Positions 1 through 17,131 of a stretch of 32,000 nt of DNA are shown in pieces. Under the pieces are notes generated by a model. The model worked only from the letters and a program-made list of their open reading frames with translations. It did not search any database and was not told the DNA's origin. A program made the translations under genes and the position numbers. This DNA comes from Rhodopseudomonas sp. NSM. Lineage in GTDB: Bacteria > Pseudomonadota > Alphaproteobacteria > Rhizobiales > Xanthobacteraceae. Where the stretch lies: the NCBI GenBank assembly GCA_052445935.1, contig JBQTCH010000003.1, one strand, 5' to 3'. How positions within the stretch are numbered: the first letter of the stretch is position 1; each line of letters starts with the position of its first letter.

Positions 1-294
1 AGCCGCATGGGCATCGGAACGGGTCCTTTCGCCGCAGAGTCGCTTCCTGCACGGGGACCAGATCGAAACTTCACGGCGGATGAGCATAGGGGAATCAACC
101 GTATCGGGTTGGAGACGGGTTGCCAGACGTGCGGTACCCGCGATCCAGGGACGCCACGTGGAAATTTTGTCATCGACCATCAGCCGCCGACTGCCCTAAA
201 TTCCATCGGTCTTGCTCAGCGCCTATACCCGCAGTGTCTATCGTGCAGCTTGAAGCAAGGCGGATATGTCTCCTATCTGAAAGGACGTCGCTAG
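1..294 (+). CDS. Polymorphic toxin, C-terminal part only (5' end lies outside the window); zinc-ribbon HNH endonuclease domain
   Basis: Frame +1 is open from nt 1. TGCQTCG...NFVIDHQPP...YPQCLSCSLKQG gives the CxxC / DHxxP / CxxC-x-K layout of classical HNH nucleases. Hand alignment to the C-terminus of 4945..5808 gives about two-thirds identity over ~79 aa. The TAG stop at 292-294 is followed 1 nt later by a small ORF that is paralogous to the one after 4945..5808. Confidence 0.6.
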   Translation, partial: SRMGIGTGPFAAESLPARGPDRNFTADEHRGINRIGLETGCQTCGTRDPGTPRGNFVIDHQPPTALNSIGLAQRLYPQCLSCSLKQGGYVSYLKGRR

Positions 295-295
295 A

Positions 296-664
296 ATGCC
301 CGTCTCATGCGACATAGCCCCGTTGAATTCGCTTGTCCTCATTCACGGCGCGCGTGGGTGGACGCCTCCGTTGCCTGTCGATGGTCAATTGATTTGGTCG
401 ACGCCGAGCTGCGTCGCAACTGCCTGCTTTCCGGAGGTCGAGGGGCCGACAAAGATCGTCATGGGAGCTGCGCCGGAGGTGAACCCTGGCACGGACCCGG
501 TTTTCACCGGGCTACTCGAAACGCCGGACCGGCTTGTCACCATCAGCACCGTTTCCGATGATAGCCCTATCCTGTCGTACGAGACACCCGATGTCGTCAC
601 AACAGTCAGAATTTGGCACAGTCATCCTCGGTGGCCGGAGATTGTCACGGTTGGGCTTGGCTGA
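296..664 (+). CDS. Putative cognate immunity protein (122 aa) for the HNH toxin at 1..294
   Basis: The ATG lies 1 nt after the toxin stop. It has the same length as 5815..6183 and colinear similarity to it (shared IW-S/A-TPSC, VR-I/V-W and C-terminal V-x-V-G/L-LG motifs). That paralog occupies the same position after the paralogous toxin. No family was recognised by eye. Confidence 0.6.
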   Translation: MPVSCDIAPLNSLVLIHGARGWTPPLPVDGQLIWSTPSCVATACFPEVEGPTKIVMGAAPEVNPGTDPVFTGLLETPDRLVTISTVSDDSPILSYETPDVVTTVRIWHSHPRWPEIVTVGLG

Positions 665-689
665 GTGAGCTTAACCGCGCCGGCCTACG

Positions 690-1334
690 ATGTCTTCGCT
701 GACCAAGATATTCTCGCAAGTGGATTTGGAAGGGAGCGTGGCTGCGCTGGCAAGTGAAATGAGGAAGAGAACGAGTTCCGACAGATTTCCCTGGGATGGC
801 TGGCCTTCACTAACCGAGTTGGAGCCGCTGTTTCTCGCCCCGGACGATCAGAGGTGGCCCTATTGGAAGGGCTACGATGAGTGGGCGTTGTATATCGAAG
901 GGTTGGACGGCACCGATGGCTTGCCCGATGTCGATCAGGGCAAGGTGTATCTGACGATGACTGGCACGCCCGATTTTGGCGTCATGCTCTCCTACGAAAA
1001 GTGGGACGGGCGAACAATGCAGTCGCAGGATTGTTTCTCCAAGGGCGACATGAGCCGCATCCGGGAATGGCTGCGGACGCTGCATGACGATCTGCGCCCA
1101 ATCGGTCTGTTCATTCCCTACGCGCAAGCCTGGCCCGCCGTGAAGGAGTTCATGGAGCGCGACGGCGAGCTGCCGACCAGCATCGAGTGGGTCGACGCCG
1201 AAGCTTTGCCGCCGAATACGTTTCGCTTTCCGGGATTCTTTCGGCCGGGCCCGGAGCCGCGGGTGCTGCGCGAGGAAGACATCAACGACGAATCGCCGGA
1301 CGGCAGTGATCCGTTCAAATCCTTGCGCGGCTGA
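690..1334 (+). CDS. Hypothetical protein (214 aa), possibly an additional or orphan immunity protein
   Basis: A long ORF on the cassette strand with an acidic, Trp-rich, non-repetitive translation that does not look like a GC-shadow ORF. It lies between an immunity gene and the portal 3' fragment. There is no clear Shine-Dalgarno sequence and no recognised family. Confidence 0.5.
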   Translation: MSSLTKIFSQVDLEGSVAALASEMRKRTSSDRFPWDGWPSLTELEPLFLAPDDQRWPYWKGYDEWALYIEGLDGTDGLPDVDQGKVYLTMTGTPDFGVMLSYEKWDGRTMQSQDCFSKGDMSRIREWLRTLHDDLRPIGLFIPYAQAWPAVKEFMERDGELPTSIEWVDAEALPPNTFRFPGFFRPGPEPRVLREEDINDESPDGSDPFKSLRG

Positions 1335-1335
1335 G

Positions 1336-1485
1336 CGGCGGGCGAACGGTTCTCCCATCGCCCCGCTGGCGAGCGACCGCGTCGCGTTGTGGGAACGCGT
1401 CAGCGCCGCGCGGTTCCTGACGCTCAACGAAAAACGCGAAGCCGTCGGCTACGCGCCGCTGGAGGGCGGCGACCGGCTGGGGTGA
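1336..1485 (+). pseudogene. 3'-terminal fragment of a GTA/HK97-type portal gene (RcGTA g3 equivalent)
   Basis: Frame +1 reads ...IAPLASDRVALWERVSAARFLTLNEKREAVGYAPLEGGDRLG* with the stop at 1483-1485. This matches my memory of the conserved C-terminal end of alphaproteobacterial GTA portal proteins. No start codon or portal body precedes it; the upstream 1.3 kb is toxin/immunity DNA. Confidence 0.5.
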
Positions 1486-1510
1486 GGGCGCTCGGACGAG
1501 GTACGCGAAC

Positions 1511-1732
1511 ATGTCCGACCTGATCAGGACGTTCACCGAGCGCGGCGATCTCGCGCATCTCGCATTGCTGCTGTGGGCCTTTGCGGCGTCGGCGGGGCTG
1601 TGGTTCGCGCTGCGCGAGCTGGCGGCGGCGTCGCGGCGGTTCGACGATTTCGTCCACGCGCTGGAATTGTTCAACCGCCGGGCTCGGCGGCGCCGCGCGC
1701 CGGTGGCGCACGACGATGATCCCACCGACTAG
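1511..1732 (+). CDS. Small hypothetical membrane protein (73 aa) in the position of RcGTA g3.5
   Basis: The ATG is preceded by GAGG about 10 nt upstream. There is a hydrophobic stretch LAHLALLLWAFAASAGLWFAL. The link to g3.5 is positional only (between the portal end and the protease). Confidence 0.45.
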   Translation: MSDLIRTFTERGDLAHLALLLWAFAASAGLWFALRELAAASRRFDDFVHALELFNRRARRRRAPVAHDDDPTD

Positions 1733-1741
1733 GAGGCTGCG

Positions 1742-1924
1742 ATGGAGCGACTGCACCAGGTGCTGAGCGCGATCCGCGTCGAGACCAAATCCGCCAGGGA
1801 TCATCACCACGTGTTCCGCGAATTCCTCGACCACCTCGACCAGGCGCAGCGCAAACCGCTGGCCAAGCGCCCGCGGCTCAAGGCCACAGCGACGCGCCGC
1901 CGCGCGGCGAAGCGGGCGAAGTAA
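1742..1924 (+). CDS. Small basic hypothetical protein (60 aa)
   Basis: AGGAGG at 1731-1736 lies 5 nt upstream of the ATG. The C-terminus is Lys/Arg-rich. No recognised family. Confidence 0.45.
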   Translation: MERLHQVLSAIRVETKSARDHHHVFREFLDHLDQAQRKPLAKRPRLKATATRRRAAKRAK

Positions 1925-2100
1925 CAACGCGGCCCCGTGTCCCGCACGCGGTGCAACGCGAAGCGTTGCGCCGCAGATGCGGGACCCCGGTTTCCGCGAT
2001 CGCGGCGTGTCGCGAAACCGGGACCCCGGATCTGCGACGCGGCACTGCGCGCCGCATCGCGTCCGGGGCACGGCTGCAAATCCTTCCGTCGCCTTCAATC
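1925..2100. repeat. Cluster of GC-rich intergenic palindromes (REP-like)
   Basis: A hairpin gcaacgc-gaa-gcgttgc lies at 1953-1969. A long imperfect inverted repeat gcagatgcgggaccccggtttc ... gaaaccgggaccccggatctgc spans 1973-2035. Further short palindromes follow downstream. Confidence 0.45.
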
Positions 2101-2141
2101 GCTCGAACTCGTCATCACTCCGCTCATTTGCGAGGCCGCTG

Positions 2142-2798
2142 ATGCTTGCCCCGTTGTCCGATGCCGGGCTCGCGCCGGCGCGTCTGATGCTGGCTGCCGA
2201 CGGCAGCATCGAAGGCTATGCCAGCCTGTTCGGCGAGATCGACCAGGCGCGCGACATGGTGATGCCGGGCGCGTTCACGCAGACGCTGAAGCACCGCGGT
2301 GTGCGAAAAATCCCGATGCTGTTCCAGCACGACCCGAGCGAGCCGGTCGGAATCTGGCTCGACCTCGTCGAGGATTTTCGCGGCCTCCGCGCGCGCGGCC
2401 GGCTGATCCCCGACGTCGCGCGCGGACGTGAACTCCTTGCATTGCTGCGCGAGGGCGCGATCGACGGGCTGTCGATCGGCTATCGCACCGTGCGCGGCCA
2501 GATCGACCCGAAGACGCGGGTGCGGCGGCTGTATCAGGTCGACCTCTGGGAAATCTCGATCGTCACCTTTCCGCTGCTGAACGGCGCGCGCGTCGGCACC
2601 GTCAAGCAGACGCCGCGCCTGTCGCTGCAACGCCGCGTCGCGGAAGCGGCATGGCGCAGCATGCAGAGCGCGCCATCGCAATCGGCCAGCGCCGCGGATG
2701 CACCGGCGTTGCCCGCGCGGCGCGGGCGGACGGCCCTGACGCTGTCCTCCCGCGCCGATCGCAAGCGCGCCTTCGCAGGGATCAGCCGGAGCCGGTGA
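2142..2798 (+). CDS. HK97-family prohead (capsid maturation) protease, RcGTA g4 equivalent
   Basis: GYASLFGEIDQARDMVMPGAF, MLFQHD, GLSIGY and LWEISIVTFP are motifs typical of HK97/GTA prohead proteases. The internal ATG at 2142 is preferred because 1977-2141 of the tracked ORF overlaps the REP-like palindromes. The 3' end is uncertain because the last ~65 codons are Ala/Arg/Ser-rich low complexity. Confidence 0.85.
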   Translation: MLAPLSDAGLAPARLMLAADGSIEGYASLFGEIDQARDMVMPGAFTQTLKHRGVRKIPMLFQHDPSEPVGIWLDLVEDFRGLRARGRLIPDVARGRELLALLREGAIDGLSIGYRTVRGQIDPKTRVRRLYQVDLWEISIVTFPLLNGARVGTVKQTPRLSLQRRVAEAAWRSMQSAPSQSASAADAPALPARRGRTALTLSSRADRKRAFAGISRSR

Positions 2799-2896
2799 GA
2801 CGCGCTGACCTCGCCGGACCGGCGGGGCTAGGCCGTCCAGCAACTGCGCCCAGGATCAGATCCCTTCACTCACTTCCCGATCGACAGAGCCAACAC

Positions 2897-3631
2897 ATGT
2901 GGCGCGCGACCGAGAGCACCGCGGCGCATCAGCGCGCGCGCTTCATGCAGCCGAATGCGACGCTCTGGATGCGCCCGGACGCCGAGCGTTGGATCAGGCC
3001 CGACGTCGCGCGTTTTCTCGCGCCGGGTGCCCTGCCGGAAGATGTCTTCCCTGCACTGGATCGCAAGTACAACCCAAACCAACCGCGGGTGCCGAAGGGC
3101 AATCCGGACGGCGGCGAGTGGACGCTTGGCGGGCTTGGAGCGCGCTGGTCCATCGATCTGACGGGTGTCCCGTCCGATCTTTCAGGCCGACCCCCGGCTC
3201 GAGTTCGCCTCGCCCAAATAGGCAAGCTGATCACTGATATCTTTGGATTGCCGTATTACGAACCAGGCGGTCATCACGAGGCCGCCAGGGCCATGTACAC
3301 CAAGTGGGACCTTCGACCGGAAACGCGAAAGGTCTTTGACAATTCGACGACGGGTAAGTTACCGAGCGGTAAGTGGGTGTAGTCGTTGGATGGTGGTCTC
3401 CTCCGTGAGCACTATTGGGATAAGCGTCACGCGGCGTACAATAAGGCTGTCGAAGAACTAAGCGAACGCTTTCTTGAAGAGAAGAAAATTACGCCTAAGA
3501 TGATGACGCCACACCAAGCGGAAGAATTGTGCGCGCGGATCAGACTGTCGGAAGTGCCCGAAATCAAAGACTACAACCGCGCGATCCGAATGTTGAGGCA
3601 GGTGTATCGACTTAGATACGGTCGAGAGTAG
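2897..3631 (+). pseudogene. Polymorphic toxin A: conserved N-terminal module plus a GHH-signature HNH/EndoVII-like nuclease domain, interrupted by an in-frame TAG at 3380-3382
   Basis: The ATGTGG start is conserved with 4945 and 6508. The N-terminus reads MWRATESTAAHQRARFMQPNATLWMRPDAERWIRPDVARFLAPG...NQPRVPKGNPDGGEWT. The C-terminal part carries LPYYEPGGHHE. The tracked ORFs 2651..3382 and 3386..3631 are in the same frame and are separated only by the TAG. Together they align colinearly with the single ORF 6508..7116 plus its extension. Confidence 0.7.
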
Positions 3632-3642
3632 CGGAGGTCAAT

Positions 3643-4044
3643 TTGACGAACTCCAGGATCCGTTTCAGTCGCGAAGAATTCGTGCCGCTTTGGACCGCGC
3701 TGCGCGAGCGTATCATCGCTTGTTTCGAAAGCACGGGTAAGATCATCGATCCTTTCGGTCGAAGGGACTTCTGGGTGGTCGACGAGGACCTCGGCGTCGC
3801 GCTGGTGGAAGTCGAGATCATGACACTCGACCTGCTCGATCCGCCGGTGATCTACGCCCTGCGCGACCTGCTGCAAGAGTATCCGGGCTTCGCCATCACC
3901 GTGTCGGTGGTGCCGCCTGGTGGCGCCAAGTGGCCCGGAATGGGCATCTCGCTGTTTCAAGGCGAGATCATCGACGGGTTGAAGCGCTCCTTTCTGCCGC
4001 CGCCCTATCGAAATCTGCACTACCTGGGATCTCGTCCAGAATAG
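3643..4044 (+). CDS. Putative immunity protein for the GHH-type toxin (133 aa)
   Basis: GGAGG at 3633-3637 lies 5 nt before the TTG start, which is 11 nt after the toxin reading frame ends. It is clearly paralogous to 7283..7663 (DFWVVD, VEIM-LDLL-P-VIY-LRDLL, G-IIDGLKR, LP-PY) and more distantly to 4261..4665. Confidence 0.7.
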   Translation: MTNSRIRFSREEFVPLWTALRERIIACFESTGKIIDPFGRRDFWVVDEDLGVALVEVEIMTLDLLDPPVIYALRDLLQEYPGFAITVSVVPPGGAKWPGMGISLFQGEIIDGLKRSFLPPPYRNLHYLGSRPE

Positions 4045-4079
4045 CCGTGTCCGTGCGGCGTCGCGGGACCTGACTGCGT

Positions 4080-4217
4080 TCTTCGACGGTGACCAGCGAA
4101 GATAACCAGCAGCTCGAGTGGCCGGTCCTGAATGCTCGGATCGACCGTATCCGAGATTTCAACCGCGCGATGCGGATGTTAAGGGTCATCGCGAAAATGT
4201 GGCTCGGGCGGGAATGA
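4080..4217 (+). pseudogene. Orphan stub: last ~30-45 codons of a third GHH-type toxin
   Basis: Frame +3 reads ...LNARIDRIRDFNRAMRMLRVIAKMWLGRE* with the stop at 4215-4217. This aligns with the C-terminal ends ...EIKDYNRAIRMLRQVYRLRYGRE* (toxin A) and ...EIRDYNRAIRMLRRVFRWRMGRE* (toxin C). No N-terminal part or start codon is present. Confidence 0.55.
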
Positions 4218-4260
4218 GAGGAGCGGCGACGCGGCTGGCCACAAACGGGAATGGCGGCTG

Positions 4261-4665
4261 TTGCACCATGCCATCGTGCAGGTGATCGACAGTTATGTCT
4301 GCGAGCGCGCGAAAGCTGGTCGCGCGGTCTGGGTGTCTTCGAAACGTAGTCCGGGCTGTTATTCTCAGTTCATCACCTTGTACGACATCCAGTTGTTGCA
4401 GCCGGAGATGCTGGCTGCGTTGCAGACGTTGCTCGCCGGGTATCGCGACTGGTCGATTGAAATCCAGGTTGCTGCCCCGGACGGGGAGCGCACATGGGAT
4501 TGGCGCGACATGACGATCGATATTTCGCACGATCGTATCATCGACCGGCTTCAGCATGATCTGTTGCCACCGCATCTGCGGCAGGTGCGGTTCGGGACGA
4601 CGATCGATGAGTACAACGAGGAGCTCGCCGCGACGGTGCGGCGGCTGATGCGCAAGCCCGTCTAA
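4261..4665 (+). CDS. Orphan immunity-family protein (divergent paralog of 3643..4044 and 7283..7663)
   Basis: It shares ...LYDIQLLQPEMLAALQTLLAGY...IIDRLQHDLLPPHL with the VEIM-LDLLQP...IIDGLKR...LP-PY pattern of the other two. The start is uncertain: only a TTG/CTG is available after the upstream in-frame stop at 4180-4182. Confidence 0.55.
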   Translation: MHHAIVQVIDSYVCERAKAGRAVWVSSKRSPGCYSQFITLYDIQLLQPEMLAALQTLLAGYRDWSIEIQVAAPDGERTWDWRDMTIDISHDRIIDRLQHDLLPPHLRQVRFGTTIDEYNEELAATVRRLMRKPV

Positions 4666-4722
4666 GAAGCGCCTCCCGGCGCCCACCCGCCATAGTACAG
4701 ACAGATCGATACGAAGACACGG

Positions 4723-4880
4723 GTGCGACGGCTGTATCAGGTCGATCTCTGGGCGATCTCGATCGTCACGCTTCCGCTGCTCGCCGGCGCGCGCGTGCCA
4801 CCGTCAAACACACGCCGCTGCAATCGCCGCAGTTCGCGTCATCGCGATCGGCCAGCGCCGCGGATGGACCGGCGCGAGAT
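4723..4880 (+). pseudogene. Duplicated, degenerate 3' end of the prohead protease gene
   Basis: RRLYQVDLWAISIVTLPLLAGARV matches RRLYQVDLWEISIVTFPLLNGARV of the protease (nt ~2521-2592) at 21 of 24 residues. Nucleotide similarity continues with deletions through atcggccagcgccgcggatg. No protease body lies upstream. Confidence 0.7.
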
Positions 4881-4944
4881 CGTAAGGCAGCCACGCGTTC
4901 CATCGGGTCTTTCGCTCCACTCACCAATCAATCGAGGTCGACAC

Positions 4945-5808
4945 ATGTGGCGCTCCAGCGACAGCACCGCCGCGCATCAGCGCGCGCGCTTCATGCAACC
5001 AGATGCGGCACGCTGGATGCGGCCGGATGCCGAGCGATGGATCCGGCCCGATGTCGCGCGCTTTCTCGCGCCCGGCACCGACCCCGCGACGATCTTCCCG
5101 GCGCTCGACCGCAAGTACAGCCCGAACCAGCCGCGGGTACCGGCCGGAAACCCGGATGGCGGGCAGTGGACGAATGGCGAACTGGGAGGAGGGGCTTCGT
5201 CTGCCCGCCCGGGGCGCAATGATCCGCGCGTGATTTCCGACGCTGACCTCGAGCCCGTCAAGCCTGGGCAGCAACACGCTCAAGCGCGCGGGCGGCGCGG
5301 TGGCGGGACGGTCATCATCAACGGCCAGCGGTTCGAATTGACGCCGGGGCAAGGAGCACGGCTGACAGCGGTGCAAGCTCGCGCTGACGCTGCGATCGCT
5401 CGGGTGCGGGAAGCCGAACCCTCGTGGAAGCCGCCCCCCAATGACTACCAGACGCCGGAGGGGATGATCCGGGCCTATGAGGCCGACGCTGCGGTCGCCC
5501 AGGCGAGAATCAATCAATTGGCAGCGGGAGGAGCCCTGCCGGGCCCGTACGCCGGCGAATCAATTTCGGCAAGAGGGCCGAATCGGGATTTTCGAGCTTC
5601 GGAACGACGCGAGATCAATCGAATTGGCGCCGACACCGGCTGCCACACTTGTGGAAAGTTGGAACCCGGGACCAGCCTTGGTAACTTCGTCGCAGACCAC
5701 CAACTCCCGACCAATATCAATCCGATCAGCCGTGCACAGCGTCTCTATCCGCAATGTCTTTCGTGTAGTCGGAAGCAAGGACCGTTTGTCCGCGACCTGA
5801 AGAAGTAG
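4945..5808 (+). CDS. Polymorphic toxin B (287 aa), the only uninterrupted full-length copy: conserved N-terminal module plus linker plus zinc-ribbon HNH endonuclease domain
   Basis: GAGG lies 7 nt upstream of the conserved ATGTGG start. The N-terminal 78 aa differ at only 3 positions from toxin C. The C-terminus TGCHTCG...NFVADHQLP...YPQCLSCSRKQG has the HNH layout and is paralogous to 1..294. An immunity-type ORF follows. Confidence 0.75.
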   Translation: MWRSSDSTAAHQRARFMQPDAARWMRPDAERWIRPDVARFLAPGTDPATIFPALDRKYSPNQPRVPAGNPDGGQWTNGELGGGASSARPGRNDPRVISDADLEPVKPGQQHAQARGRRGGGTVIINGQRFELTPGQGARLTAVQARADAAIARVREAEPSWKPPPNDYQTPEGMIRAYEADAAVAQARINQLAAGGALPGPYAGESISARGPNRDFRASERREINRIGADTGCHTCGKLEPGTSLGNFVADHQLPTNINPISRAQRLYPQCLSCSRKQGPFVRDLKK

Positions 5809-5814
5809 TCCGCC

Positions 5815-6183
5815 ATGAATCAGACCACGAGATGCGCGCCGCCGAATTCGATCGTCTTCCTGGAAGACCCGGCGGGCGGCAAGTCGCCGAAGATCGACGA
5901 TCGCCCGGTGAGCATATGGGCGACACCATCGTGTATCATCGTCGGCACGCTCTGTTCGATGGATGGTGAGACCGAACTGATCGTGTCGGACCAACCGAAT
6001 GATGTGCCGCCGACACGGCCGACGTTCGACAGTTTTCTCCAAACGCCGAGCCGCGTCATCGAGGTGTCGACCTCCGAGCGCGAAATACTCCTGCGCTGTC
6101 CGGTGGAAACACACTTCACCCATGTTCGCGTCTGGACCAACCATCTCAGCGAACCGGACCGGGTTTTGGTCGTGCTCGGGTGA
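5815..6183 (+). CDS. Putative cognate immunity protein (122 aa) for toxin B
   Basis: The ATG lies 6 nt after the toxin stop. It is a paralog of 296..664 with the same length and shared motifs. Confidence 0.65.
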   Translation: MNQTTRCAPPNSIVFLEDPAGGKSPKIDDRPVSIWATPSCIIVGTLCSMDGETELIVSDQPNDVPPTRPTFDSFLQTPSRVIEVSTSEREILLRCPVETHFTHVRVWTNHLSEPDRVLVVLG

Positions 6184-6336
6184 TGGGAGTCGCCGCGGCC
6201 GGTGAGGGGGCGCGGCGAGGGTGCTCGCCCTGACCGCCCCCGCACACGAACGGGGTGGTGCTCTCCGCTTCTGCAACATCGACTAGAGCACTTCATCGAC
6301 TGATAGGATCAACGCGGCATTCTCGAGTGCGGAGTC

Positions 6337-6454
6337 GTCATCCTGAGGCGCGCGCGTAGCGCGCCTTGAAGGATGCGGCGAAGACGCTTGTGGCTCATCC
6401 TTCGAGGCCCGCAGCGCCGCGCATCGCGCGGCCCAGCGTGAACCTCAGGATGAC
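6337..6454. repeat. MITE/REP-like palindromic element, family 1 (gtcatcctgagg ... cctcaggatgac)
   Basis: The 12-bp terminal inverted repeats enclose nested palindromes (gaaggatg ... catccttc). Four copies are present in the window, at 6337, 13059, 14916 and 17132. Confidence 0.8.
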
Positions 6455-6507
6455 GACAGTGATTCCATCAAACCAGAGTTGATCCAACAACGTTCGAGGC
6501 CCGACCG

Positions 6508-7248
6508 ATGTGGAGCTCATCCGCGAGCACCGCCGCGCATCAGCGCGCGCGCTTCATGCAGCCCGATGCGGCGCGGTGGATGCGGCCAGACGCGGATCGC
6601 TGGATCCGGCCCGATGTCGCGCGCTTCCTTGCGCCGGGCACTGATCCGGCGACGATCTTCCCCGCGCTCGACCGCAAGTACAGCCCTAACCAGCCGCGGG
6701 TACCGGCCGGAAACCCGGATGGCGGGCAGTGGACAAATGGTGGCATCAGCGCTCGCTGGGCCGTCGACGATGTCCTCCTCAGCGATCCACAGGATGATCA
6801 GCTCCTCGATGGCGTTCAACTGACTCAGGTCGGGAGCTCAGTCACTGACGCCGATGGACTTCCCTACTATGCAACCGGCGGCCATCACGAAATGCCGAGG
6901 GGTGTCTACAGGAAATGGAACTTGCAGCCCGAGACCGAACGGGTATTCAATCGATCGACGACTGGCTCGCTTCCACAGGGAAGCCATATCGAAACGGATC
7001 AAGGTTTGCTCCGAGGACACTACTGGGATGGACCGGATGGTGCTCATGCCAAGTACAACAACGCCGTGTCTGACTTGAGTGAGCGCTTCATGAGAGAACA
7101 ACGGATCACGCCTTGAGTGATGACGCCCGATCAAGCCGAAGAGCTTCTGACGCGTATCAGGGAGTCGGACGTGCCGGAAATACGTGACTACAACCGGGCA
7201 ATTCGGATGCTGAGGAGGGTGTTCCGATGGCGCATGGGCAGAGAGTAG
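6508..7248 (+). pseudogene. Polymorphic toxin C: conserved N-terminal module plus GHH-signature nuclease domain, interrupted by an in-frame TGA at 7114-7116
   Basis: It uses the conserved ATGTGG start and carries LPYYATGGHHE. After ...RITP the in-frame TGA is followed, in the same frame, by VMTPDQAEELLTRIRESDVPEIRDYNRAIRMLRRVFRWRMGRE* (stop at 7246-7248). This matches the uninterrupted equivalent stretch of toxin A. Confidence 0.7.
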
Positions 7249-7282
7249 GCCGTTGGCTCGGTGATCGCCGGAGCATCGTCCG

Positions 7283-7663
7283 ATGACGCGGGAGAAATTC
7301 CTGCAGACCTGGAGCGAGTTGCGAGATCGCGCCATTGCCTATCTCGAAGGCTTTGGAAAGGAGATCGATCCGCTCGGCCACAAGGACTTCTGGGTCGTCG
7401 ACGATGATTATGACCTCTATCTTCTCCAGGTCGAGATCATGAGTCTCGATCTGCTGCAGCCGGCGGTGATCTACGGACTGCGCGATCTGCTCCGTGACTA
7501 TCCCGATTTCGCGATGACCGTTGCCGTTGTGGCGCCCCACGGCATCACGTGGCCGCGGATGGGTATCACGCTGTTCGAAGGCCAGATCATCGACGGGCTG
7601 AAGCGCGGATCGCTGCCGCTCCCCTATCAGGAGATTCAATATAAGGGCTCTCGGCCGGATTGA
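7283..7663 (+). CDS. Putative immunity protein for the GHH-type toxin (126 aa)
   Basis: GGAG lies 9 nt upstream of the ATG. It is a paralog of 3643..4044. Confidence 0.7.
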   Translation: MTREKFLQTWSELRDRAIAYLEGFGKEIDPLGHKDFWVVDDDYDLYLLQVEIMSLDLLQPAVIYGLRDLLRDYPDFAMTVAVVAPHGITWPRMGITLFEGQIIDGLKRGSLPLPYQEIQYKGSRPD

Positions 7664-7761
7664 TGAAGCGCTGCTTCCAGGAGGCCGACCCGCATCCCTG
7701 AACGCATTGCTGGCCGCCCGCTAGCCGCCGACCAACCGATCCCCTCGACTGAACGCTCCCC

Positions 7762-7790
7762 CGCCGTGGCCTCCCGCCGCGGCGTTTTCG
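7762..7790 (+). terminator. Intrinsic-terminator-like hairpin immediately upstream of the capsid gene
   Basis: A 9-bp stem cgccgtggc / gccgcggcg (one G-U pair) has the loop ctccc and is followed by TTTTCG at 7785-7790. It lies 37 nt before the capsid ATG. Confidence 0.4.
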
Positions 7791-7827
7791 TTCGTGCCTA
7801 TCCCGAAACGCCCACCAGGAGAACCCG

Positions 7828-9084
7828 ATGGACTACGACATCACCACCACCGCGCCGGAGACCAAGGCCGGCTTCGCTTCGTCCGAGCGCGATGCGCAGG
7901 ACGAGCTGCTGCGCGTCCACGAGGAATTCAAGGCGGCCAATGACGAGCGCCTGGCCGCGCGCGAGCGGCGGCGCGGCGACGTGTTGCTGGAAGAGAAGGT
8001 CGACCGGATTTCGGATGCGATCGACACCCGGCTGAAGCGGATCGAGGATTTCGCGCTGAAGCAGGCGCGGCCGCGGCTCGACGGCCGCCGCGCCGAGAGC
8101 TTCGCCGGCAGCCGCGAGCACAAGAGTGCGTTCGAGGCCTACGTCCGCAGCGGCGACGCCGCGCCGCTGCGCGCGATCGAGACCAAGGCGCTGTCGGTCG
8201 GCTCCAATCCGGACGGCGGTTACCTCGTGCCGGTCGAGCTCGAACACGCGATCGCCTCGCGGCTTTCGTCGATCTCGCCGATCCGGAGCCTCGCCTCGGT
8301 GCGCGAGATTTCCGGCAGCGTCTACAAGAAGCCGTTCATGACCACGGGGCCCGCCACCGGCTGGGTCGGCGAGACCGACGTGCGGACGCAGACGGCCTCG
8401 CCGGTGCTCGACGCGCTGTCGTTCCCGGCGATGGAGCTGTACGCGATGCCGGCCGCGACCGCGACGCTGCTCGACGACTCGGCGGTGAATATCGACGAGT
8501 GGATCGCCGCCGAGGTCGAACTCACCTTCGCGGTGCAGGAGGGCGCGGCGTTCGTCAACGGCGACGGCGTCAACAAGCCGAAGGGCTTTCTCGCCGCGCC
8601 CACGGTGGCGAACGCGTCGTGGAGCTGGGGCAGTCTCGGTACTATCGCCACCGGCGCCGCCGGCGCGTTTCCCGAGGACGATCCGTCCGACGTGCTGGTC
8701 GATCTGATCTACGCGCTGAAGGCCGGCTATCGCCAGAACGGCGCCTTCGTGATGAACCGCAAGACCCAGGCCACGATCCGCAAGTTCAAGGATGCGTCCG
8801 GCAGCTATCTGTGGCAGCCGCCGGCGCAGGCGGGCGGCCGCGCCTCGCTGATGACGTTCCCGCTGATCGAGGCCGAGGACATGCCCGACGTCGCGGCGAA
8901 TTCGCTCAGCGTCGCGTTCGGCGACTTCCGCCGCGGCTATCTGGTGGTCGACCGGCTCGGCGTCCGCGTGCTGCGCGACCCGTATTCCGCCAAGCCCTAC
9001 GTGCTGTTCTACACCACGAAGCGGGTCGGCGGCGGCGTGCAGGACTTCGACGCGATCAAGCTGCTGAAGTTCGCGGCGAGCTGA
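7828..9084 (+). CDS. HK97-family major capsid protein, RcGTA g5 equivalent (418 aa)
   Basis: AGGAG lies upstream of the ATG. The N-terminal coiled region (delta-domain-like) is followed by GGYLVP, AFVNGDG-NKPKGFL and YRQNGAFVMN, motifs typical of HK97 capsids. Its position after the protease is also as expected. Confidence 0.93.
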   Translation: MDYDITTTAPETKAGFASSERDAQDELLRVHEEFKAANDERLAARERRRGDVLLEEKVDRISDAIDTRLKRIEDFALKQARPRLDGRRAESFAGSREHKSAFEAYVRSGDAAPLRAIETKALSVGSNPDGGYLVPVELEHAIASRLSSISPIRSLASVREISGSVYKKPFMTTGPATGWVGETDVRTQTASPVLDALSFPAMELYAMPAATATLLDDSAVNIDEWIAAEVELTFAVQEGAAFVNGDGVNKPKGFLAAPTVANASWSWGSLGTIATGAAGAFPEDDPSDVLVDLIYALKAGYRQNGAFVMNRKTQATIRKFKDASGSYLWQPPAQAGGRASLMTFPLIEAEDMPDVAANSLSVAFGDFRRGYLVVDRLGVRVLRDPYSAKPYVLFYTTKRVGGGVQDFDAIKLLKFAAS

Positions 9085-9123
9085 ACGAGCATCCGAACGC
9101 ACGATCCAGACTCACGATCCAAG

Positions 9124-9150
9124 CGGCGCGCCCGATCGGCGCGCCGTTTT
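9124..9150 (+). terminator. Rho-independent terminator after the capsid gene
   Basis: A perfect 9-bp GC stem cggcgcgcc / ggcgcgccg (9124-9132 paired with 9138-9146) has the loop cgatc and is followed by TTTT at 9147-9150. Confidence 0.6.
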
Positions 9151-9194
9151 CGATTCCAGCCCCTGTTTTGGATCCTCGGTGAGGACAACGTCGC

Positions 9195-10022
9195 ATGCCG
9201 CACCAGGACGATGCCTGGCTGCGCCATCAGCAGACGCGATGGTTGCGGCCCGACGGCGACCGCTGGGTGCGCCCGGACGCCGCGCGGTTTCTGAAGCCAG
9301 GTAGCAACCTGGTCGAGGTCTTCCCGGCGCTGGCGTTCAAATACAGCCCAAACCAGCCGCGCGTGCCGGCCGGCCATCCGGACGGCGGGCAGTGGACGAG
9401 CGGGGGAGGGGGTGAGGTCTCGGACTTTGCGGACCCCATCGGCAGTACGCAGCCGAGCTATGCGCTGCCCATGGGCGACGTTGCGATCGGTGACGTTGCC
9501 GTTGGAAGCGACGATCTGTTTTCCATCGTGTCGAAACAGCCCGAGCGCACTGGTGTCAGGCTTGCGGGCGATCTACCGGAAGGCAGCGATCCGGCTCCGG
9601 AGGTGCCGACGGAGCCTCCGCCGGAAATTCCAGCCAAGAAACCCAGAACCAGTGCAGAGCGGACGGCCATTCTTCGAGCTGTCGAAAATTGGGCAGTGCG
9701 ACATGCTGGTCTACCAGCTAAGATGTTGTTCGGTGCGATCGAGAATATTGAATGGCTCAAGGATCGGACAGATCTCATCCGAGCAGCAACCGATCCGCCG
9801 AAGAGCCTCCTGGAGTTGCAGAATGAAGTCGGCAGGAAGCGCGCGGGCTACGACGTTCATCACATTGTTGAAAGAACCTGGGCGGAGTATTTTGGCTTTT
9901 CGCGATCGCAGGTCAATGATCGGTCGAATTTGGTGAGTATTCCGCGACTTAAGCATTGGCAGATCACCGGATGGTACATGACGCGGACCGATGAGTTCGG
10001 TGGTTTGTCGCCGCGGGATTAA
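9195..10022 (+). CDS. Polymorphic toxin D (275 aa): N-terminal module (subtype 2) plus an HNH nuclease domain of the xHH type; probably truncated by a TAA
   Basis: GAGGA lies 9 nt upstream of the ATG. The N-terminus reads MPHQDDAWLRHQQTRWLRPDGDRWVRPDAARFLKPG...NQPRVPAGHPDGGQWT. The C-terminal part carries GYDVHHIVE...NDRSNLVSIPRLKHW. In the same frame after the TAA at 10020-10022, 25 more codons (..VGLYALRRFGVLEP*) match the C-terminus of toxin E and end in a GTGA overlap with the next gene. Confidence 0.7.
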   Translation: MPHQDDAWLRHQQTRWLRPDGDRWVRPDAARFLKPGSNLVEVFPALAFKYSPNQPRVPAGHPDGGQWTSGGGGEVSDFADPIGSTQPSYALPMGDVAIGDVAVGSDDLFSIVSKQPERTGVRLAGDLPEGSDPAPEVPTEPPPEIPAKKPRTSAERTAILRAVENWAVRHAGLPAKMLFGAIENIEWLKDRTDLIRAATDPPKSLLELQNEVGRKRAGYDVHHIVERTWAEYFGFSRSQVNDRSNLVSIPRLKHWQITGWYMTRTDEFGGLSPRD

Positions 10023-10096
10023 CTTGCAGGTCGGGACTGGAACGAGCGTAAGCGGGTGGGGCTATACGCTCTTCGGCGATTTGGAGTGCTCGAGCC

Positions 10097-10468
10097 GTGA
10101 AAGCGATCGATCTTGAAGCCATGTCGACGGACGAACTGGTGCAGCGCTTCTCCGCTATAGGAGTCGCACAAGATCAGGCGCTGCTCGGATTCAGGCTCAA
10201 GGAGTTCAATCGGCTTTTCGAGAAAATGGCCGATGTGTCCGAGGCGCTGAAACGACGTGACGGCGATCAGCGGCGCGCGCTGCTGGTGCTGTTCAGCTAT
10301 CCGAATATGCAAGTGCGATTGAAGGCTGCCAAACATACGCTCGCAGTCGCGCCGCTCGAAGCGCGCCAGCAGCTCGAAGCAATTGTGGCTAGCAGGTGGT
10401 TCCCGCAAGCGGGTGACGCCGGCATGTGCTTGTCGTTGCTGGACGACGGGACTTTCAAACCGAAATGA
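10097..10468 (+). CDS. Putative immunity protein, DUF2019-like (123 aa)
   Basis: The GTG start overlaps the ancestral toxin stop (GTGA at 10097-10100). ELVQRF...ALL...FNRLF...LK.R.GDQRRALL.L..YPN.QVRLKAA.HTLAVAP.EAR..LE.I...W.PQAGDAGM.L..LD.G.FKP matches my memory of DUF2019 proteins. It is a close paralog of 11563..11934. Confidence 0.7.
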   Translation: MKAIDLEAMSTDELVQRFSAIGVAQDQALLGFRLKEFNRLFEKMADVSEALKRRDGDQRRALLVLFSYPNMQVRLKAAKHTLAVAPLEARQQLEAIVASRWFPQAGDAGMCLSLLDDGTFKPK

Positions 10469-10517
10469 CACAGAGAGACGATGTCGAGGCCCACGCGGCG
10501 CCCGCCCGCGGACCGAC

Positions 10518-10595
10518 GCGATGATCATGCTGCTGAAATTTTCGGCGAGCTGATCGGCCCGGTCCGCCCGGAACGGCCTGATCTCGACATCCAAA
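10518..10595 (+). pseudogene. Degenerate duplicate of the capsid gene 3' end
   Basis: gacgcgatgatcatgctgctgaaattttcggcgagctga aligns with the capsid terminus gacgcgatcaagctgctgaagttcgcggcgagctga (DAIKLLKFAAS*). The similarity runs on into the copied terminator. Confidence 0.55.
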
Positions 10596-10627
10596 CGGCG
10601 CGCCCGATCGGCGCGCCGTGTTCGTTT
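10596..10627 (+). terminator. Second copy of the capsid terminator hairpin, with a decayed T-tract
   Basis: It has the same cggcgcgcc-cgatc-ggcgcgccg hairpin as 9124-9146, here followed by tgttcgttt. Confidence 0.4.
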
Positions 10628-10664
10628 GCGGCCTTCGGTTCATCCGCAACGAGGATGCTGCCGT

Positions 10665-11566
10665 ATGCCGCATCACGACCAGGCCTGGCTGCGCCATCAG
10701 TAGATGCGATGGCTGCGGCCCGATGGCGACCGCTGGGTGCGCCCGGACGCCGCGCGCTTTCTGAAGCCAAGTAGCAACCCGTCGAGGCCTTTCCGGCGCC
10801 GGCGTTCAAATTCAGCCCGAACCAGCCGCGCGTGCCGGCCGGCCATTCGGACGGCGGGCAGTGGACGAGTGGCGGGGGTGGGGCCGCCGAGTCTGCAGAT
10901 CCCAGTGGGAGCGGGCCCGCGAGCGCGGCGCAGCCGATGGGCGACGTTGCGATCGGCGACGCCGCGGCCCAAAGCAATGATCTGTTTTCAATCGTGTCGA
11001 AAGAGCCAGACCGCTCCGGCGTGCGGTTGGCGGGCGATCTGCCGGAGGGCAGCGATCCGGCGCCTGGAGTGCCCGGCAACGAGCCGCCGGAAATTCCGCA
11101 AAAGAAACCTGCCTATAGTGCAGATCGAACGAGATATTTTCGGGCTGCTGCCGACTGGCTTGCACGAAGCTCGGGTCTTCCCGGACTGCTTTACGAAGGC
11201 TCTATGAGATCCGTGGAGTGGCTGCGAGATTGGCATGATGTTATTTCGGCTGCGCGAGACGGTCCCAAGCCGTTGAGGGAGTTCATGGACGGTGTTGGTC
11301 AAGCTCGCCCGGGCTACGATGTCCATCACATCAACGAGGTAAAGGCGGCAAAGCTGGATGGTTATAGCCTGTTGGTGATCAACGATCCTTCGAATCTTGT
11401 CAGCATTCCGCGCCTGAAGAACTATCAGATCACGGTATGGTATTCAGCACCAAGCGTCGAATTTGATGGTTTGTCTCCGGGAGAATTCCTGCGTGGCAAG
11501 AGCTGGGAGACGCGCCGCGAAGTCGGGTTGAGGGCGCTGCGAAAATTTGGAGTGTTGGAGCCATGA
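10665..11566 (+). pseudogene. Polymorphic toxin E: same architecture as toxin D, inactivated by an in-frame TAG (10701-10703) and a 1-nt deletion near 10779
   Basis: The sequence atg ccg cat cac gac cag gcc tgg ctg cgc cat cag TAG corresponds to cag CAG in toxin D. aacctggtcgagg in D is aacccgtcgagg here, which shifts the frame from +3 to +2. The downstream ORF 10832..11566 carries PGYDVHHINE...NDPSNLVSIPRLKNY and an intact C-terminus ...FGVLEP*. Confidence 0.7.
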
Positions 11567-11934
11567 GCAAACAGGATCTTCGCCAAATGGCGACGCCGGA
11601 GCTCGTGGCTCTATTTGCGAAAGTCGTGGTCGGACAGGACGAGGCCTTGCTCGGACATCAGCGAGCGAAATTCAAACGCTTGTTCGACATGATGCGAGAT
11701 ATTGCGAACGAATTGAAGGGACGCGAAAGTGATCAGCGGGTCGCGCTGTTGAGCCTCTTCGAATACCCGAATATGCAGGTGCGGCTTCAGGCGGCCAAGC
11801 TGACGCTCGCGGTCGCTCCCCTGGAGGCGCGCAAACAGCTCGAAGCTATCGCGTCCACAAAGTGGTATCCGCAGGCCGGCGACGCCGGTATGTGCCTATC
11901 CTTTCTGGACGATGGAACATTCAAGCCGAAATGA
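11563..11934 (+). CDS. Putative immunity protein, DUF2019-like (123 aa)
   Basis: There is an ATGA start/stop overlap with toxin E. It is a close paralog of 10097..10468. Confidence 0.7.
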   Translation: MSKQDLRQMATPELVALFAKVVVGQDEALLGHQRAKFKRLFDMMRDIANELKGRESDQRVALLSLFEYPNMQVRLQAAKLTLAVAPLEARKQLEAIASTKWYPQAGDAGMCLSFLDDGTFKPK

Positions 11935-12079
11935 TACATCAGGATGATGTCGGATGCGGTGCAGCAACATGCTTCCGTGGCAAGCGCAGGCTCAGCGCGC
12001 GGGACGCCGCGGCTCGCCGAGATTCGTGCTGGAAGGTCGAAGAAATGCGATTTCGGCGCTTGATAATCGAAGCCGGGTC

Positions 12080-12249
12080 CCGATGATCGACCGCGGCGAG
12101 AACACGCACCATGACTTCCCTCAGGCGTGCAGCTCGTTCAAGGTGTTGGCTCCATGAGGGCAGATCAATTGAAGAGCGCAAGCACTCATGAGCTGGTCGC
12201 CCATTTTGCCAAGGTCGTTGATCGAGATCCATCGGACCGTGCGCGGTGA
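12080..12249 (+). pseudogene. Vestige of a third xHH-toxin / DUF2019-immunity junction
   Basis: aaggtgttggctccATGAggg mirrors ggagtgttggagccATGAgca at the junction of toxin E and its immunity gene. From the ATG at 12154 the frame reads MRADQLKSASTHELVAHFAKVVDRDPSDRAR* (stop at 12247-12249). Compare MSKQDLRQMATPELVALFAKVV... in the E immunity protein. The upstream limit is approximate. Confidence 0.45.
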
Positions 12250-13196: not shown

Positions 13197-13967
13197 CTAC
13201 TTCGCCAGCGTCGCGCCCCAGCTCCGCGCCGTGGTCTCGATCCAGTCGCGATACAGCGTCAAGGGCGTGATGCCGGTGAGGCCGCCGCAGCCGCTCGCGT
13301 TGGCGGCGCCGGTCGACCACGACACCACGCCGATCACCACCGCGCGGCCGTTCTGCTGTTGCAGCGCCGGGCCGCCGGAATCGCCGGTGCAGGCGCCCTG
13401 GCCCTCGCGGGCGTTGTTGGTCGCCGGATCGACCAGGCGGATCTGCAGCCGGCCGGGGCGGCCGGTGGCGATCAGTTCGGCGGCGCGCACCACGCCGCCG
13501 CTCTTGCCATCGCCGCGCTGCGCCACGCCGATGCCGGCGACGGTGAAGCTCTGCCCCGCGGAGAGCGGATCGCCCGGCGCGGCGATCGCGACCGGGCTCC
13601 TGCCGGGCAGGGGAGCCGCGAGCTGCAGCAGCGCGATGTCGGCGGTGGCGCGGTTGGCCTTGATCGCGCGCAGATCGAATTGCGGATGCGCAGCGAGGCG
13701 GCGGATGTCGCGGAGCTGCGGCTGGCCCTGCGCGTCGCGCTGCACGATCTTGTAGTCCGCGCCGGGCGCGACGCAATGCGCGGCGCTCAGCACCAGATCG
13801 GGCGCGATCAGCGCGCCGGAGCAGAAATTGCCGCGCGAGCCGACGATGGTGACGATGGCGCGGCCGAGGCCGTCGCTGCGCTCGCGTGCGCCGCCGACCA
13901 TCGCGACGCAAGGCGTGGCCGCGAGCGCGGCTGTGAACAGCAGTGCGAGTTTCAACGAGCGGATCAT
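13197..13967 (-). CDS. Secreted trypsin-like (S1 family) serine protease (256 aa)
   Basis: The N-terminus is signal-like (MIRSLKLALLFTAALAA). LSAAHC (catalytic His), DIALL (Asp) and GDSGGP (Ser) are in the canonical order. The start is taken at the ATG rather than the upstream TTG. Confidence 0.85.
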   Translation of the reverse strand: MIRSLKLALLFTAALAATPCVAMVGGARERSDGLGRAIVTIVGSRGNFCSGALIAPDLVLSAAHCVAPGADYKIVQRDAQGQPQLRDIRRLAAHPQFDLRAIKANRATADIALLQLAAPLPGRSPVAIAAPGDPLSAGQSFTVAGIGVAQRGDGKSGGVVRAAELIATGRPGRLQIRLVDPATNNAREGQGACTGDSGGPALQQQNGRAVVIGVVSWSTGAANASGCGGLTGITPLTLYRDWIETTARSWGATLAK

Positions 13968-14029
13968 GGCGAGCTTCAAGAGCCTCGCCGCCGCCGCGCT
14001 GTCAACCGGATGATCTCGGAGGGAAGAAC

Positions 14030-14599
14030 ATGTCGGCGATTTTGCTGGCGGGGCCGGCTGTGGAGCCGTGGACGCTCGCCGAACTGAAGACCTTTCTGCG
14101 CGTCGACCACGACGACGACGATCCGGTGATCGCGTCGCTGCTCGCCGCGGCGCGTAGCCAGATCGAGGCGATGACGCGGCGCGCGCTGCTGGCGCAGAGC
14201 TGGCGGATCACGCGCGACGCCTGGCCGCGCGACGGCCGCATTGCGCTGCGGATCGGGCCGCTGCAGGCGCTGAGCGCGGCGCGTGTGTTCGATGCCGACG
14301 GCACTGCGCATGAGGTCGACCTCGCGCGGTTCGTGATCGACGCCGCAAGCGGGACGATCGCCGCGCCGTTTGGGTCGCTGCCGCAGCCGGGGCGCAGCGT
14401 CGCAGGCATCGCGCTCGACGTCGAGCTCGGTTACGGCACGCAAGCCTCGGACGTGCCCGAGCTGCTGCGCCACGCGGTGCGCACGTTGGTCGCGCACTGG
14501 TACGACAACCGCGGCATGGCGGCGATCGGCGGCAGCGTCGCGATACTGCCGGGCAGCGTGGCGGCGATGATCGCGAGCTTCCGGGTGGCGGCGCTATGA
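14030..14599 (+). CDS. Phage gp6-like head-tail connector protein, RcGTA g6 equivalent (189 aa)
   Basis: GGAGGGAAG lies upstream of the ATG at 14030. LAELKTFLRVDHDDDDPVIASLLAAARSQIEAMTRRAL is the typical N-terminal signature of this family. Its position relative to the following genes also fits. Confidence 0.8.
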   Translation: MSAILLAGPAVEPWTLAELKTFLRVDHDDDDPVIASLLAAARSQIEAMTRRALLAQSWRITRDAWPRDGRIALRIGPLQALSAARVFDADGTAHEVDLARFVIDAASGTIAAPFGSLPQPGRSVAGIALDVELGYGTQASDVPELLRHAVRTLVAHWYDNRGMAAIGGSVAILPGSVAAMIASFRVAAL

Positions 14600-14913: not shown

Positions 14914-14915
14914 GC

Positions 14916-15014
14916 GTCATCCTGAGGAGCCCGGCTTAGCCGGGCGTCTCGAGGATGGCGGCAGGCACCCGTGGGCATCCTTCGAGGCTCGCTGCGCTCG
15001 CACCTCAGGATGAC
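14916..15014. repeat. MITE/REP-like palindromic element, family 1
   Basis: It has the gtcatcctgagg ... cctcaggatgac termini. It starts 3 nt after the adaptor stop and ends 28 nt before the next start. Confidence 0.8.
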
Positions 15015-15041
15015 GGCTTCGCTGCAACAAGGATGTTCCCC

Positions 15042-15452: not shown

Positions 15453-15462
15453 GAGAAGACGC

Positions 15463-15870: not shown

Positions 15871-15877
15871 GGGGATC

Positions 15878-17117: not shown

Positions 17118-17131
17118 AAGAGAGCACGACC

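Follow-up and report, generated by a model that had tools for sequence, protein, structure and literature searches.

The 32,000-nucleotide (nt) stretch of Rhodopseudomonas sp. NSM DNA analysed here (contig JBQTCH010000003.1, assembly GCA_052445935.1; hereafter the window) carries a gene transfer agent (GTA) cluster of the type known from Rhodobacter capsulatus (RcGTA), and the head genes of this cluster are interleaved with an array of toxin/immunity-type cassettes. The cassettes represent a polymorphic toxin family previously undescribed in the literature searched. The explanation that we favour, with a probability of roughly 0.55, is that a short N-terminal module routes these toxins into GTA heads and that the cassettes have been stacked behind the head genes by recombination. 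An earlier note, made from the letters of the window without database searches, had already placed such an array between RcGTA-type head genes, and the Pfam assignments of the protease, capsid, connector and tail genes confirm this location. The literature searched on GTAs together with polymorphic toxins and cognate immunity, and on DUF2019, contains no description of toxin/immunity cassettes in a GTA.

Toxin-type frames or stubs, seven in all and each with a short open reading frame (ORF) after it, lie behind the portal 3' end, the S78 protease gene and the capsid gene. The earlier note counted eight, but the last of them, regarded as a vestige at 12080..12157, shows no detectable similarity to any toxin. 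Five plus-strand frames, starting at 2897, 4945, 6508, 9195 and 10665, share an N-terminal module (N-module) of 70–78 amino acids (aa) with 56–96% identity, visible at the DNA level as the repeat families D1/D2, and then split into three unrelated C-termini (CT1, CT2 and CT3), exactly as had been noticed. N-modules of type A precede CT2 domains (GGHHE type) in 2897..3631 (+) and 6508..7248 (+), which are inactivated by TAG 3380 and TGA 7114, respectively. N-modules of type B precede CT3 domains (DVHHI..N..H type) in 9195..10100 (+), where TAA 10020 costs the last ~25 residues, and in 10665..11566 (+), inactivated by TAG 10701 and a 1-nt deletion near 10780. The former is annotated by NCBI (9195..10022) as the truncated 275-aa ACTZWT_10285, the homologues of which have ~290–300 aa; for the latter, the AlphaFold2 (AF2) model of 10775..11563 reaches a predicted local distance difference test (pLDDT) score above 90 over residues 100–263. 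The array also holds a CT1-type (CxxC..DHQ..CxxC) toxin gene of which the window edge leaves only the 3' part (1..294, +; 66% identity to residues 200–286 of the 4945..5808 product, E 2e-38 in tblastn) and a CT2-type 3' stub (4080..4217, +; tblastn match to the CT2 C-terminus, E 5e-5).

That four of the five frames with an N-module are inactivated had escaped the earlier note; the sole intact toxin gene is 4945..5808 (+). Together with the downstream ORF 5815..6183 it makes up the only intact toxin/immunity-type pair of the window. Its 287-aa product, of CT1 type, matches ACTZWT_10260 from Rhodopseudomonas sp. NSM at 100% identity and has 897 homologues. It consists of the N-module (residues 1–78), a Gly-rich linker, a middle domain (~90–195) and a Cys4/DH C-terminal domain (196–287); the AF2 model has a pLDDT of ~90 for residues 120–287, and residues 1–118 look disordered. 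The middle domain, also found in deaminase-type relatives, is comparable to the pre-toxin domain of polymorphic toxins. Programmed read-through of the in-frame stops in the other frames was considered and rejected, given three different stop codons at unrelated positions and a frameshift.

Each C-terminal type is followed by its own family of small ORFs, and the pairing is strict. Among 46 sequences, DUF2019 ORFs stand behind CT3 in 33/33 cases, imm122 ORFs behind CT1 in 17/17 and imm126/134 ORFs behind CT2 in 10/10, so that all 60 toxin C-termini have their own family downstream, with zero cross-pairs. What had been seen in the window is therefore a rule across loci, and the spacings noticed there, from a 4-nt overlap up to 43 nt, proved correct. 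The putative cognate immunity ORF of the intact toxin (5815..6183, +, 122 aa) starts 6 nt past the toxin stop; its divergent imm122 paralogue of 122 aa at 296..664 (+) shares only 34% identity with it, compared with 66% between the adjoining CT1 domains. Such immunity paralogues diverge much more than the toxins do. The imm126 family is represented by 3643..4044 (+, 133 aa), which is 60% identical to 7283..7663 (+, 126 aa), and by a distant 134-aa paralogue at 4261..4665 (+; 30–31% identity to both), a type that comes after CT2 remnants in loci L007 and L011 as well.

Behind CT3, the ORFs 10097..10468 (+) and 11563..11934 (+) match DUF2019 (PF09450) over their full length with E-values of 1.1e-43 and 1.3e-44 (148 and 151 bits, against a Pfam cut-off of 23.3). 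Adjacency in 33/33 cases makes DUF2019 a probable immunity protein for CT3 toxins. The product of 10097..10468 matches over its full length the PDB entry 2I9C (RPA1889 of R. palustris CGA009; E 1.2e-50), a structural-genomics protein deposited as hypothetical. RPA1889, for which DUF2019 has its solved structure, is closely homologous to the protein presumed to give immunity to CT3. Orphan or displaced modules complete the picture. In the window these are the stub 4080..4217 with 4261..4665, and a 214-aa immunity-type ORF (X214) at 690..1334 (+), with a weak Pfam match to Imm1 (E 0.002, below the cut-off), which recurs 3' of other N-module toxins (L011, L015, L016, L019, L023, L028, L031); arrays of DUF2019, imm122 and imm126 genes occur in other loci. 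The proposed polymorphic toxin/immunity layout, with a conserved N-terminus, variable C-termini, type-specific downstream ORFs and orphan modules, is thus established, and toxicity and immunity are the functions that it would imply.

The N-module was found in GTA head modules exclusively. A pattern scan of one genome from each of 185,579 species returned 39 loci in Nitrobacteraceae and Xanthobacteraceae (Rhodopseudomonas, Tardiphaga, Afipia, Nitrobacter and Pseudolabrys-like metagenome-assembled genomes), the exceptions being one contig binned as Methylobacterium and a few metagenome-assembled genomes classified only to order or above. All 39 loci are GTA head modules, as are 6/6 loci retrieved by exact-protein look-up and 2/2 from IMG/VR; homologues lying mostly away from head genes, which would have spoken against the proposal, were not what the scan returned. 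The head-module link of the family is accordingly one of RcGTA-type GTAs of the Nitrobacteraceae and Xanthobacteraceae. Over all loci examined, 96 of 104 N-module copies lie directly behind a head gene (protease 42, capsid 36, portal 11, terminase 7), at median distances of 52 nt from the protease, 186 nt from the capsid and 70 nt from the portal gene; some gaps past the protease stop are as short as 2–20 nt. The usual order is terminase, portal, [toxin], protease, toxin-immunity, capsid, a toxin with one or more DUF2019 genes behind it, a minus-strand trypsin gene and connector.

Additionally, the two subtypes of the N-module keep to different slots in loci L001–L139. Type A (MW..HQRARFMQPDAARWMRPD) belongs to the protease or portal slot, and type B (MPHQDDAWLRHQQTRWLRPD) to the capsid or terminase slot: behind the protease gene there are 39 type A versus 3 type B modules, and behind the capsid gene 34 type B versus 2 type A. 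This preference is independent of the C-terminal toxin attached. Judged from gene order and sequence, the link of the toxins to GTA head genes is specific and not accidental.

The notion that portal, protease, capsid and connector genes are normally contiguous was examined in 80 IMG/VR loci chosen by capsid similarity alone, at the protease–capsid and capsid–connector junctions, and it was borne out, with gaps of roughly 30–400 nt in the control clusters. In loci with 44–66% capsid identity, protease–capsid gaps are mostly 50–450 nt and capsid–connector gaps mostly 30–400 nt, whereas in the close lineage (69–80% capsid identity) cassettes fill 0.9–2 kb and 2–4 kb at these junctions, respectively. 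A subset of the group with 58–63% identity has its cassettes after the portal gene instead, again with portal 3' remnants. Cassettes are missing from most RcGTA-type clusters of the control set, the close Nitrobacteraceae lineage being the exception. As the genes from protease to connector are contiguous in the controls, the interleaving is a real departure from the norm. In the window, ~6.3 kb separate the portal end from the capsid start and ~4.9 kb the capsid end from the connector start, and cassettes fill both intervals.

The ~75-aa N-module itself is predicted to be disordered: in AF2 models it and the Gly-rich linker have pLDDT values below 50–65, compared with ~90–97 for the downstream domains. 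A profile search with it returned 1899 cluster representatives at E<=1e-3 and 375 at E<=1e-10. The first ~50 residues, with the repeated RW[ML]RPD..RW[IV]RPD..RFL, occur in short GTA-linked proteins only. The final ~20 residues form a tag, K[YF]xPxQPRxPxGxxxGG[QR]W (typically KYxPxQPRxPxGxxxGGQW), which is also present 4–11 times per protein in giants of 1000–2700 aa (proteins P0122–P0187). The giants contain ART-PolyVal, GNAT, NUDIX, Acb1 (anti-CBASS, that is, directed against cyclic oligonucleotide-based antiphage signalling), ADP-ribosyl exotoxin, ChaB and Zeta-toxin domains, an effector content by which they can be classed as phage polyvalent proteins. In the phage contig L059 (4451–12767), two tag-bearing giants are encoded between a MuF gene and the genes for an S78_2 prohead protease and capsid; in L048 (2742–3425), a tag-bearing ATLF metalloprotease protein is encoded between the portal and MuF genes.

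Polyvalent proteins have been predicted to be packaged in phage heads and injected (Iyer et al. 2017, PMC5512222). Sequence tag and gene position are thus common to the GTA toxins and to phage proteins predicted as head cargo, which places the proposed packaging of the toxins on better ground. In the giants the tag usually comes immediately ahead of every effector domain and is often found at the very N-terminus, and this arrangement fits a docking or targeting signal for each domain better than a pure cleavage site. It may serve as a general tag for capsid cargo or as a signal for processing; we found no description of the motif in the literature searched. A tblastn search of GenBank phages with the N-module gave no match, protein P0132 matched phages in individual domains only, and a search of IMG/VR by protein patterns found none for protein P0129.

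The nature of the C-terminal domains is less clear. All three had been read as HNH-type signatures, and the motif strings themselves stand: CT1 has GC.TCG-x13-DHQ-x17-QC..CS, with the Cys4, D and H invariant in 38 homologues, CT2 has an invariant GHH followed by E..F..TTG, and CT3 has GYDxHH..N.V.IP..KH. In AF2 models, strand-strand-helix (beta-beta-alpha) elements surround the CT1 and CT3 motifs. Validation of family or fold did not follow from Pfam, NCBIfam, PHROGs, PDB profiles or Foldseek. Scans of all toxin and immunity frames against Pfam, NCBIfam and PHROGs gave DUF2019 as the only significant family, the three C-terminal types remaining without one and Imm1 being weak. PDB sequence and profile searches with CT1, CT2, CT3, imm122 and imm126 found no match, nor did Foldseek searches of the toxin models against PDB and BFVD. 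Comparison of the CT1 profile, the only one so aligned, with T4 endonuclease VII (query sequence checked against PDB 1E7D) in hhalign was negative, with a probability of 0.3. Below threshold, member-wise Pfam searches matched AHH in 4/42 CT3 members (best E 0.078) and 1/10 CT2 members (E 0.58), and Endonuclease_7 in 1/25 CT1 members (E 0.12). Since all these weak matches point to one superfamily, HNH/EndoVII is our best guess for the C-termini.

Among the short proteins in the best 150 relatives found with the N-module profile, there are at least 13 unrelated C-terminal clusters. A CdiA-CT RNase A domain (PF18431, E 1.5e-14, better than the Pfam cut-off) was recognised in one relative, P0256; another cluster shows weak MafB19/dCMP deaminase matches. 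Each toxin protein has a single C-terminal domain and so lacks the several effector domains that define polyvalent proteins. A MuF domain (PF04233/PF06152) was not matched by Pfam in any window toxin frame at E<=0.1.

The array bears clear marks of how it grew. A duplicated protease 3' end at 4702..4874 (+), made up of DNA repeats (2499–2593 in 4702–4796, 87% identity; 2663–2708 in 4829–4874, 89%), precedes the second post-protease cassette. Likewise, the second post-capsid cassette is preceded at 10496..10633 (+) by a duplicate of the capsid 3' end (9027–9087 in 10496–10556, 70%) together with the post-capsid hairpin (9117–9161 in 10589–10633, 89%). The original at 9117..9161 (+) is a GC-rich, terminator-like hairpin 3' of the capsid gene, with the palindrome GGCGCGCCCGATCGGCGCGCC followed by TTTT, and the copy at 10589–10633 was also flagged as terminator-like. 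In L056, terminase 3' remnants stand in front of N-modules, and portal 3' ends, too, are among the pieces duplicated ahead of cassettes. Because head-gene 3' ends are duplicated ahead of cassettes, the array can be said to have grown by recombinational accretion. Cassette DNA has a GC content of 56–60%, compared with 66–72% in the GTA genes.

Decay accompanies this growth: 29 of 71 N-module genes across loci are truncated or frameshifted, as are the four inactivated ones in the window. One by-product of the duplications is a 361-aa ORF (4723–5808, from GTG 4723), whose reading frame spans both the protease 3' remnant and the intact toxin. A gene call in L056 (15262–16602) similarly joins a Peptidase_S78 part to downstream sequence in a 446-aa product. 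Both are probably non-coding sequence read through by gene calling, although genuine protease-toxin fusions are conceivable.

The closest published parallel is provided by MuF fusions, for which capsid-packaged polymorphic toxins have been proposed (Zhang et al. 2012, PMC3482391; Jamet et al. 2017, PMC5576092). In both systems a conserved N-terminal part is combined with a variable C-terminal toxin and a small downstream immunity ORF, the gene lies in the head/packaging module near the portal gene, and packaging in the capsid is predicted. The GTA toxins differ in having a ~75-aa, predicted-disordered module in place of the MuF domain, in belonging to an RcGTA-type cluster and not to a prophage, and in occupying several slots (behind terminase, portal, protease and capsid), where tandem arrays occur together with orphan immunity genes. 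They extend the idea of MuF capsid packaging to a true GTA, with a different and very short trafficking module. With polyvalent proteins they share the KYxPxQPRxPxGxxxGGQW tag and the head-module location (L059). However, polyvalent proteins carry 2–15 effector domains directed against host defence or serving takeover and have no immunity genes, while a GTA protein has a single tag and a single variable toxin domain and is accompanied by its cognate immunity gene.

C-terminal polymorphism with strictly cognate downstream immunity genes also recalls contact-dependent inhibition (CDI; CdiA-CT/CdiI) and Rhs orphan arrays, where displaced orphan modules likewise keep a piece of the conserved upstream sequence and displaced toxins decay; the CdiA-CT RNase A domain of one N-module family member adds to this link. 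Unlike in those systems, there are no components of type V or type VI secretion systems and no Rhs or filamentous haemagglutinin repeats, and the upstream pieces retained are the 3' ends of GTA structural genes. From the canonical RcGTA of Rhodobacter capsulatus and most Alphaproteobacteria, the cluster differs in that cassettes separate the portal, protease, capsid and connector genes.

Combined, these features suggest the following course of events. Since the toxin genes have the orientation of the GTA genes and come straight after a head gene (terminase, portal, protease or capsid), they would be co-transcribed and their products made together with the prohead proteins. The tag may dock the toxin in the assembling head or mark it for processing there, and on ejection the toxin would exit along with the DNA. 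Recipients with the same cluster would be shielded by the cognate immunity gene and by the orphan ones accumulated over time, and non-kin recipients would be poisoned. New cassettes could arrive by homologous recombination, with the conserved head gene and the N-module as the upstream arm, leaving behind the duplicated head-gene 3' ends that are observed. Older cassettes would thereby move downstream, where their toxins decay and their immunity genes stay; the decay is seen directly, and the order of events would be as described. In its fuller form, in which dual-purpose RcGTA-type particles of the Nitrobacteraceae inject polymorphic toxins as well as DNA, police exchange by kin discrimination and use the tag as a general head-cargo tag of HK97-like phages and GTAs, this proposal is more tentative, and we would not give it even odds.

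Several points weigh against toxin delivery by GTA heads. Most window toxin genes are broken, and in this strain the system is perhaps mostly vestigial. None of CT1, CT2 and CT3 is matched significantly by a toxin family or a solved fold. In the current view of RcGTA, its DNA is released into the periplasm and then taken up by the competence machinery, so a toxin acting in the cytoplasm would need its own route across the inner membrane; the middle domain shared with relatives is a candidate for this crossing. Furthermore, a DNase packaged beside DNA would need to be held inactive.

The most serious of the alternatives is that the toxins are co-expressed with the head genes without being packaged, and are freed in soluble form at lysis of the producer like colicins, the disordered N-module being a receptor-binding or translocation segment for import into neighbours. 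GTA release requires producer lysis, the toxin genes stand in an operon with late GTA genes, and the predicted disorder of the N-module is reminiscent of colicins, whose translocation domains are unstructured. The module's ...DGGQW core, which we take to be loosely similar to the colicin TolB box DGSGW, would fit as well. Nevertheless, a receptor or translocation box leaves unexplained why the tag is repeated 4–11 times in the polyvalent proteins of head modules. A separate receptor-binding domain is lacking, the genes are linked with head genes and not with lysis genes, and the N-module subtypes are specific to slots in the head operon. Release as bacteriocins is therefore unlikely in our estimation. 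Less likely still is that the cassettes have no role in the particle and are addiction modules, or simply passengers, which accumulate in permissive intergenic sites, spread by recombination between conserved operon genes and at most stabilise the GTA cluster. The earlier note had named a recombination sink as an alternative, and the head-gene duplications, which document accretion by recombination, bear out that part of it, as do the low GC content of the cassettes, the frequent pseudogenes and the many orphan immunity genes. What such a sink leaves unexplained is the exclusive location of the N-module, which the species-wide scan found nowhere else. A neutral sink would gather varied cargo, yet every toxin has the same N-module, with a tag common to phage head-module effectors; and toxin first, immunity second, with swapped C-termini, is the layout of polymorphic exported toxins and not of type II toxin–antitoxin systems.

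An HNH-like role in DNA packaging, in which the proteins aid DNA cutting by the terminase as gp74 does in HK97, had also been put forward. The HH..N..H and CxxC..DH..CxxC strings, the beta-beta-alpha elements around them and the sub-threshold AHH and Endonuclease_7 matches are what such a helper would display. It is nonetheless very improbable, being ruled out in practice by the C-terminal polymorphism and the immunity-type pairing: at least 13 C-terminal types, RNase A-like and deaminase-like ones included, are attached to the module and followed by type-specific small ORFs. Moreover, a packaging cofactor should be conserved and single-copy, whereas these genes are often pseudogenes and are absent from most RcGTA-type clusters. 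Routing of polymorphic toxins into GTA heads by the N-module thus remains the reading that we prefer.

That bacteria retain GTAs has long been puzzling, given that the producers are lysed and that it is difficult to demonstrate what is gained from random gene transfer. In several genera the head operons contain toxin/immunity cassettes, the tag of which recurs in phage polyvalent effectors that are encoded in head modules and predicted as head cargo. This suggests another, or an extra, benefit that can be tested: GTA particles could carry toxins harmful to non-kin and harmless to kin, or could limit productive exchange to immune relatives. If the particles are indeed dual-purpose, GTA clusters would obtain a direct competitive advantage. 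What GTAs are good for becomes experimentally approachable in this way, with the qualification that the present strain keeps one intact toxin only. Further leads are polymorphic toxins of a new trafficking class, a probable immunity function for DUF2019 and the orphan structure 2I9C, which means that the structure of one partner is already solved, and a candidate universal capsid-cargo tag, usable to load proteins into phage or GTA heads.

The RcGTA-type cluster that hosts the array has the canonical gene set and order according to a Pfam scan of the window frames. The window begins downstream of the terminase gene and of most of the portal gene, both of which are present in relatives. The portal coding 3' end at 1357..1485 (+), downstream of a cassette, was recognised from a tblastn match of the L001 portal to 1357–1479, with the ORF stop at 1485; it may equally be a remnant or the true terminus of the portal gene. 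The prohead protease (Peptidase_S78, PF04586, E 3.8e-39) is encoded at 1977..2798 (+), with the real start probably near 2181, and the HK97-type major capsid protein (PF05065, E 2.4e-86) at 7828..9084 (+). The gp6-like connector (13943..14599, +, Pfam) opens the remaining part of the cluster, with connector, head completion, tail and host-specificity genes at 13943..25724 (+). Pfam families recognised downstream are HCP (head completion), tail completion gp17, tail tube, GTA-gp10, DUF2460, Gp84_N with BR0599, NlpC/P60, a GTA_TIM/Phage-tail_3/Rcc01698_C host-specificity protein and DUF2793.

Between the array and the connector gene, a trypsin-like serine protease is encoded on the minus strand at 13197..13979 (Pfam Trypsin, E 1e-27). 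A minus-strand trypsin gene occupies the same slot in most related loci (e.g., L001 17138–17905); this conserved slot is a feature of Nitrobacteraceae GTA clusters, in contrast to canonical RcGTA clusters, which have no trypsin gene. Processing of the toxins or of the tag is a possible role for the product. A 144-aa ORF at 12188–12622 (+), located between the last DUF2019 gene and the trypsin gene, has a GC content at third codon positions of 0.82 and a signal-peptide-like stretch (MKRTITLSAACAALALVAIDIGPAFA) and no Pfam match.

A 73-aa ORF with a hydrophobic segment (1511–1732, +) lies between the portal end and the protease gene and has no family match; small ORFs in L001, L004 and L006 occupy the equivalent slot, and it may be the counterpart of the small RcGTA gene between the portal and protease genes. 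In L001 (5821–6117) and L004 (7191–7478), a GIY-YIG nuclease gene stands on the minus strand between terminase and portal, a further non-canonical insertion in GTA head modules. In the metagenomic contig L055, a gcrA cell-cycle regulator gene (933–1487) stands immediately upstream of part of a portal gene and a long array of toxin/immunity genes. Finally, a low-GC island (25500–32000; 51–62%, compared with ~70% in the GTA cluster) starts right past the cluster and encodes methyltransferases, a radical SAM protein and a PMT_2-type glycosyltransferase on the minus strand; it may be a surface-glycan island beside the host-specificity genes of the GTA.

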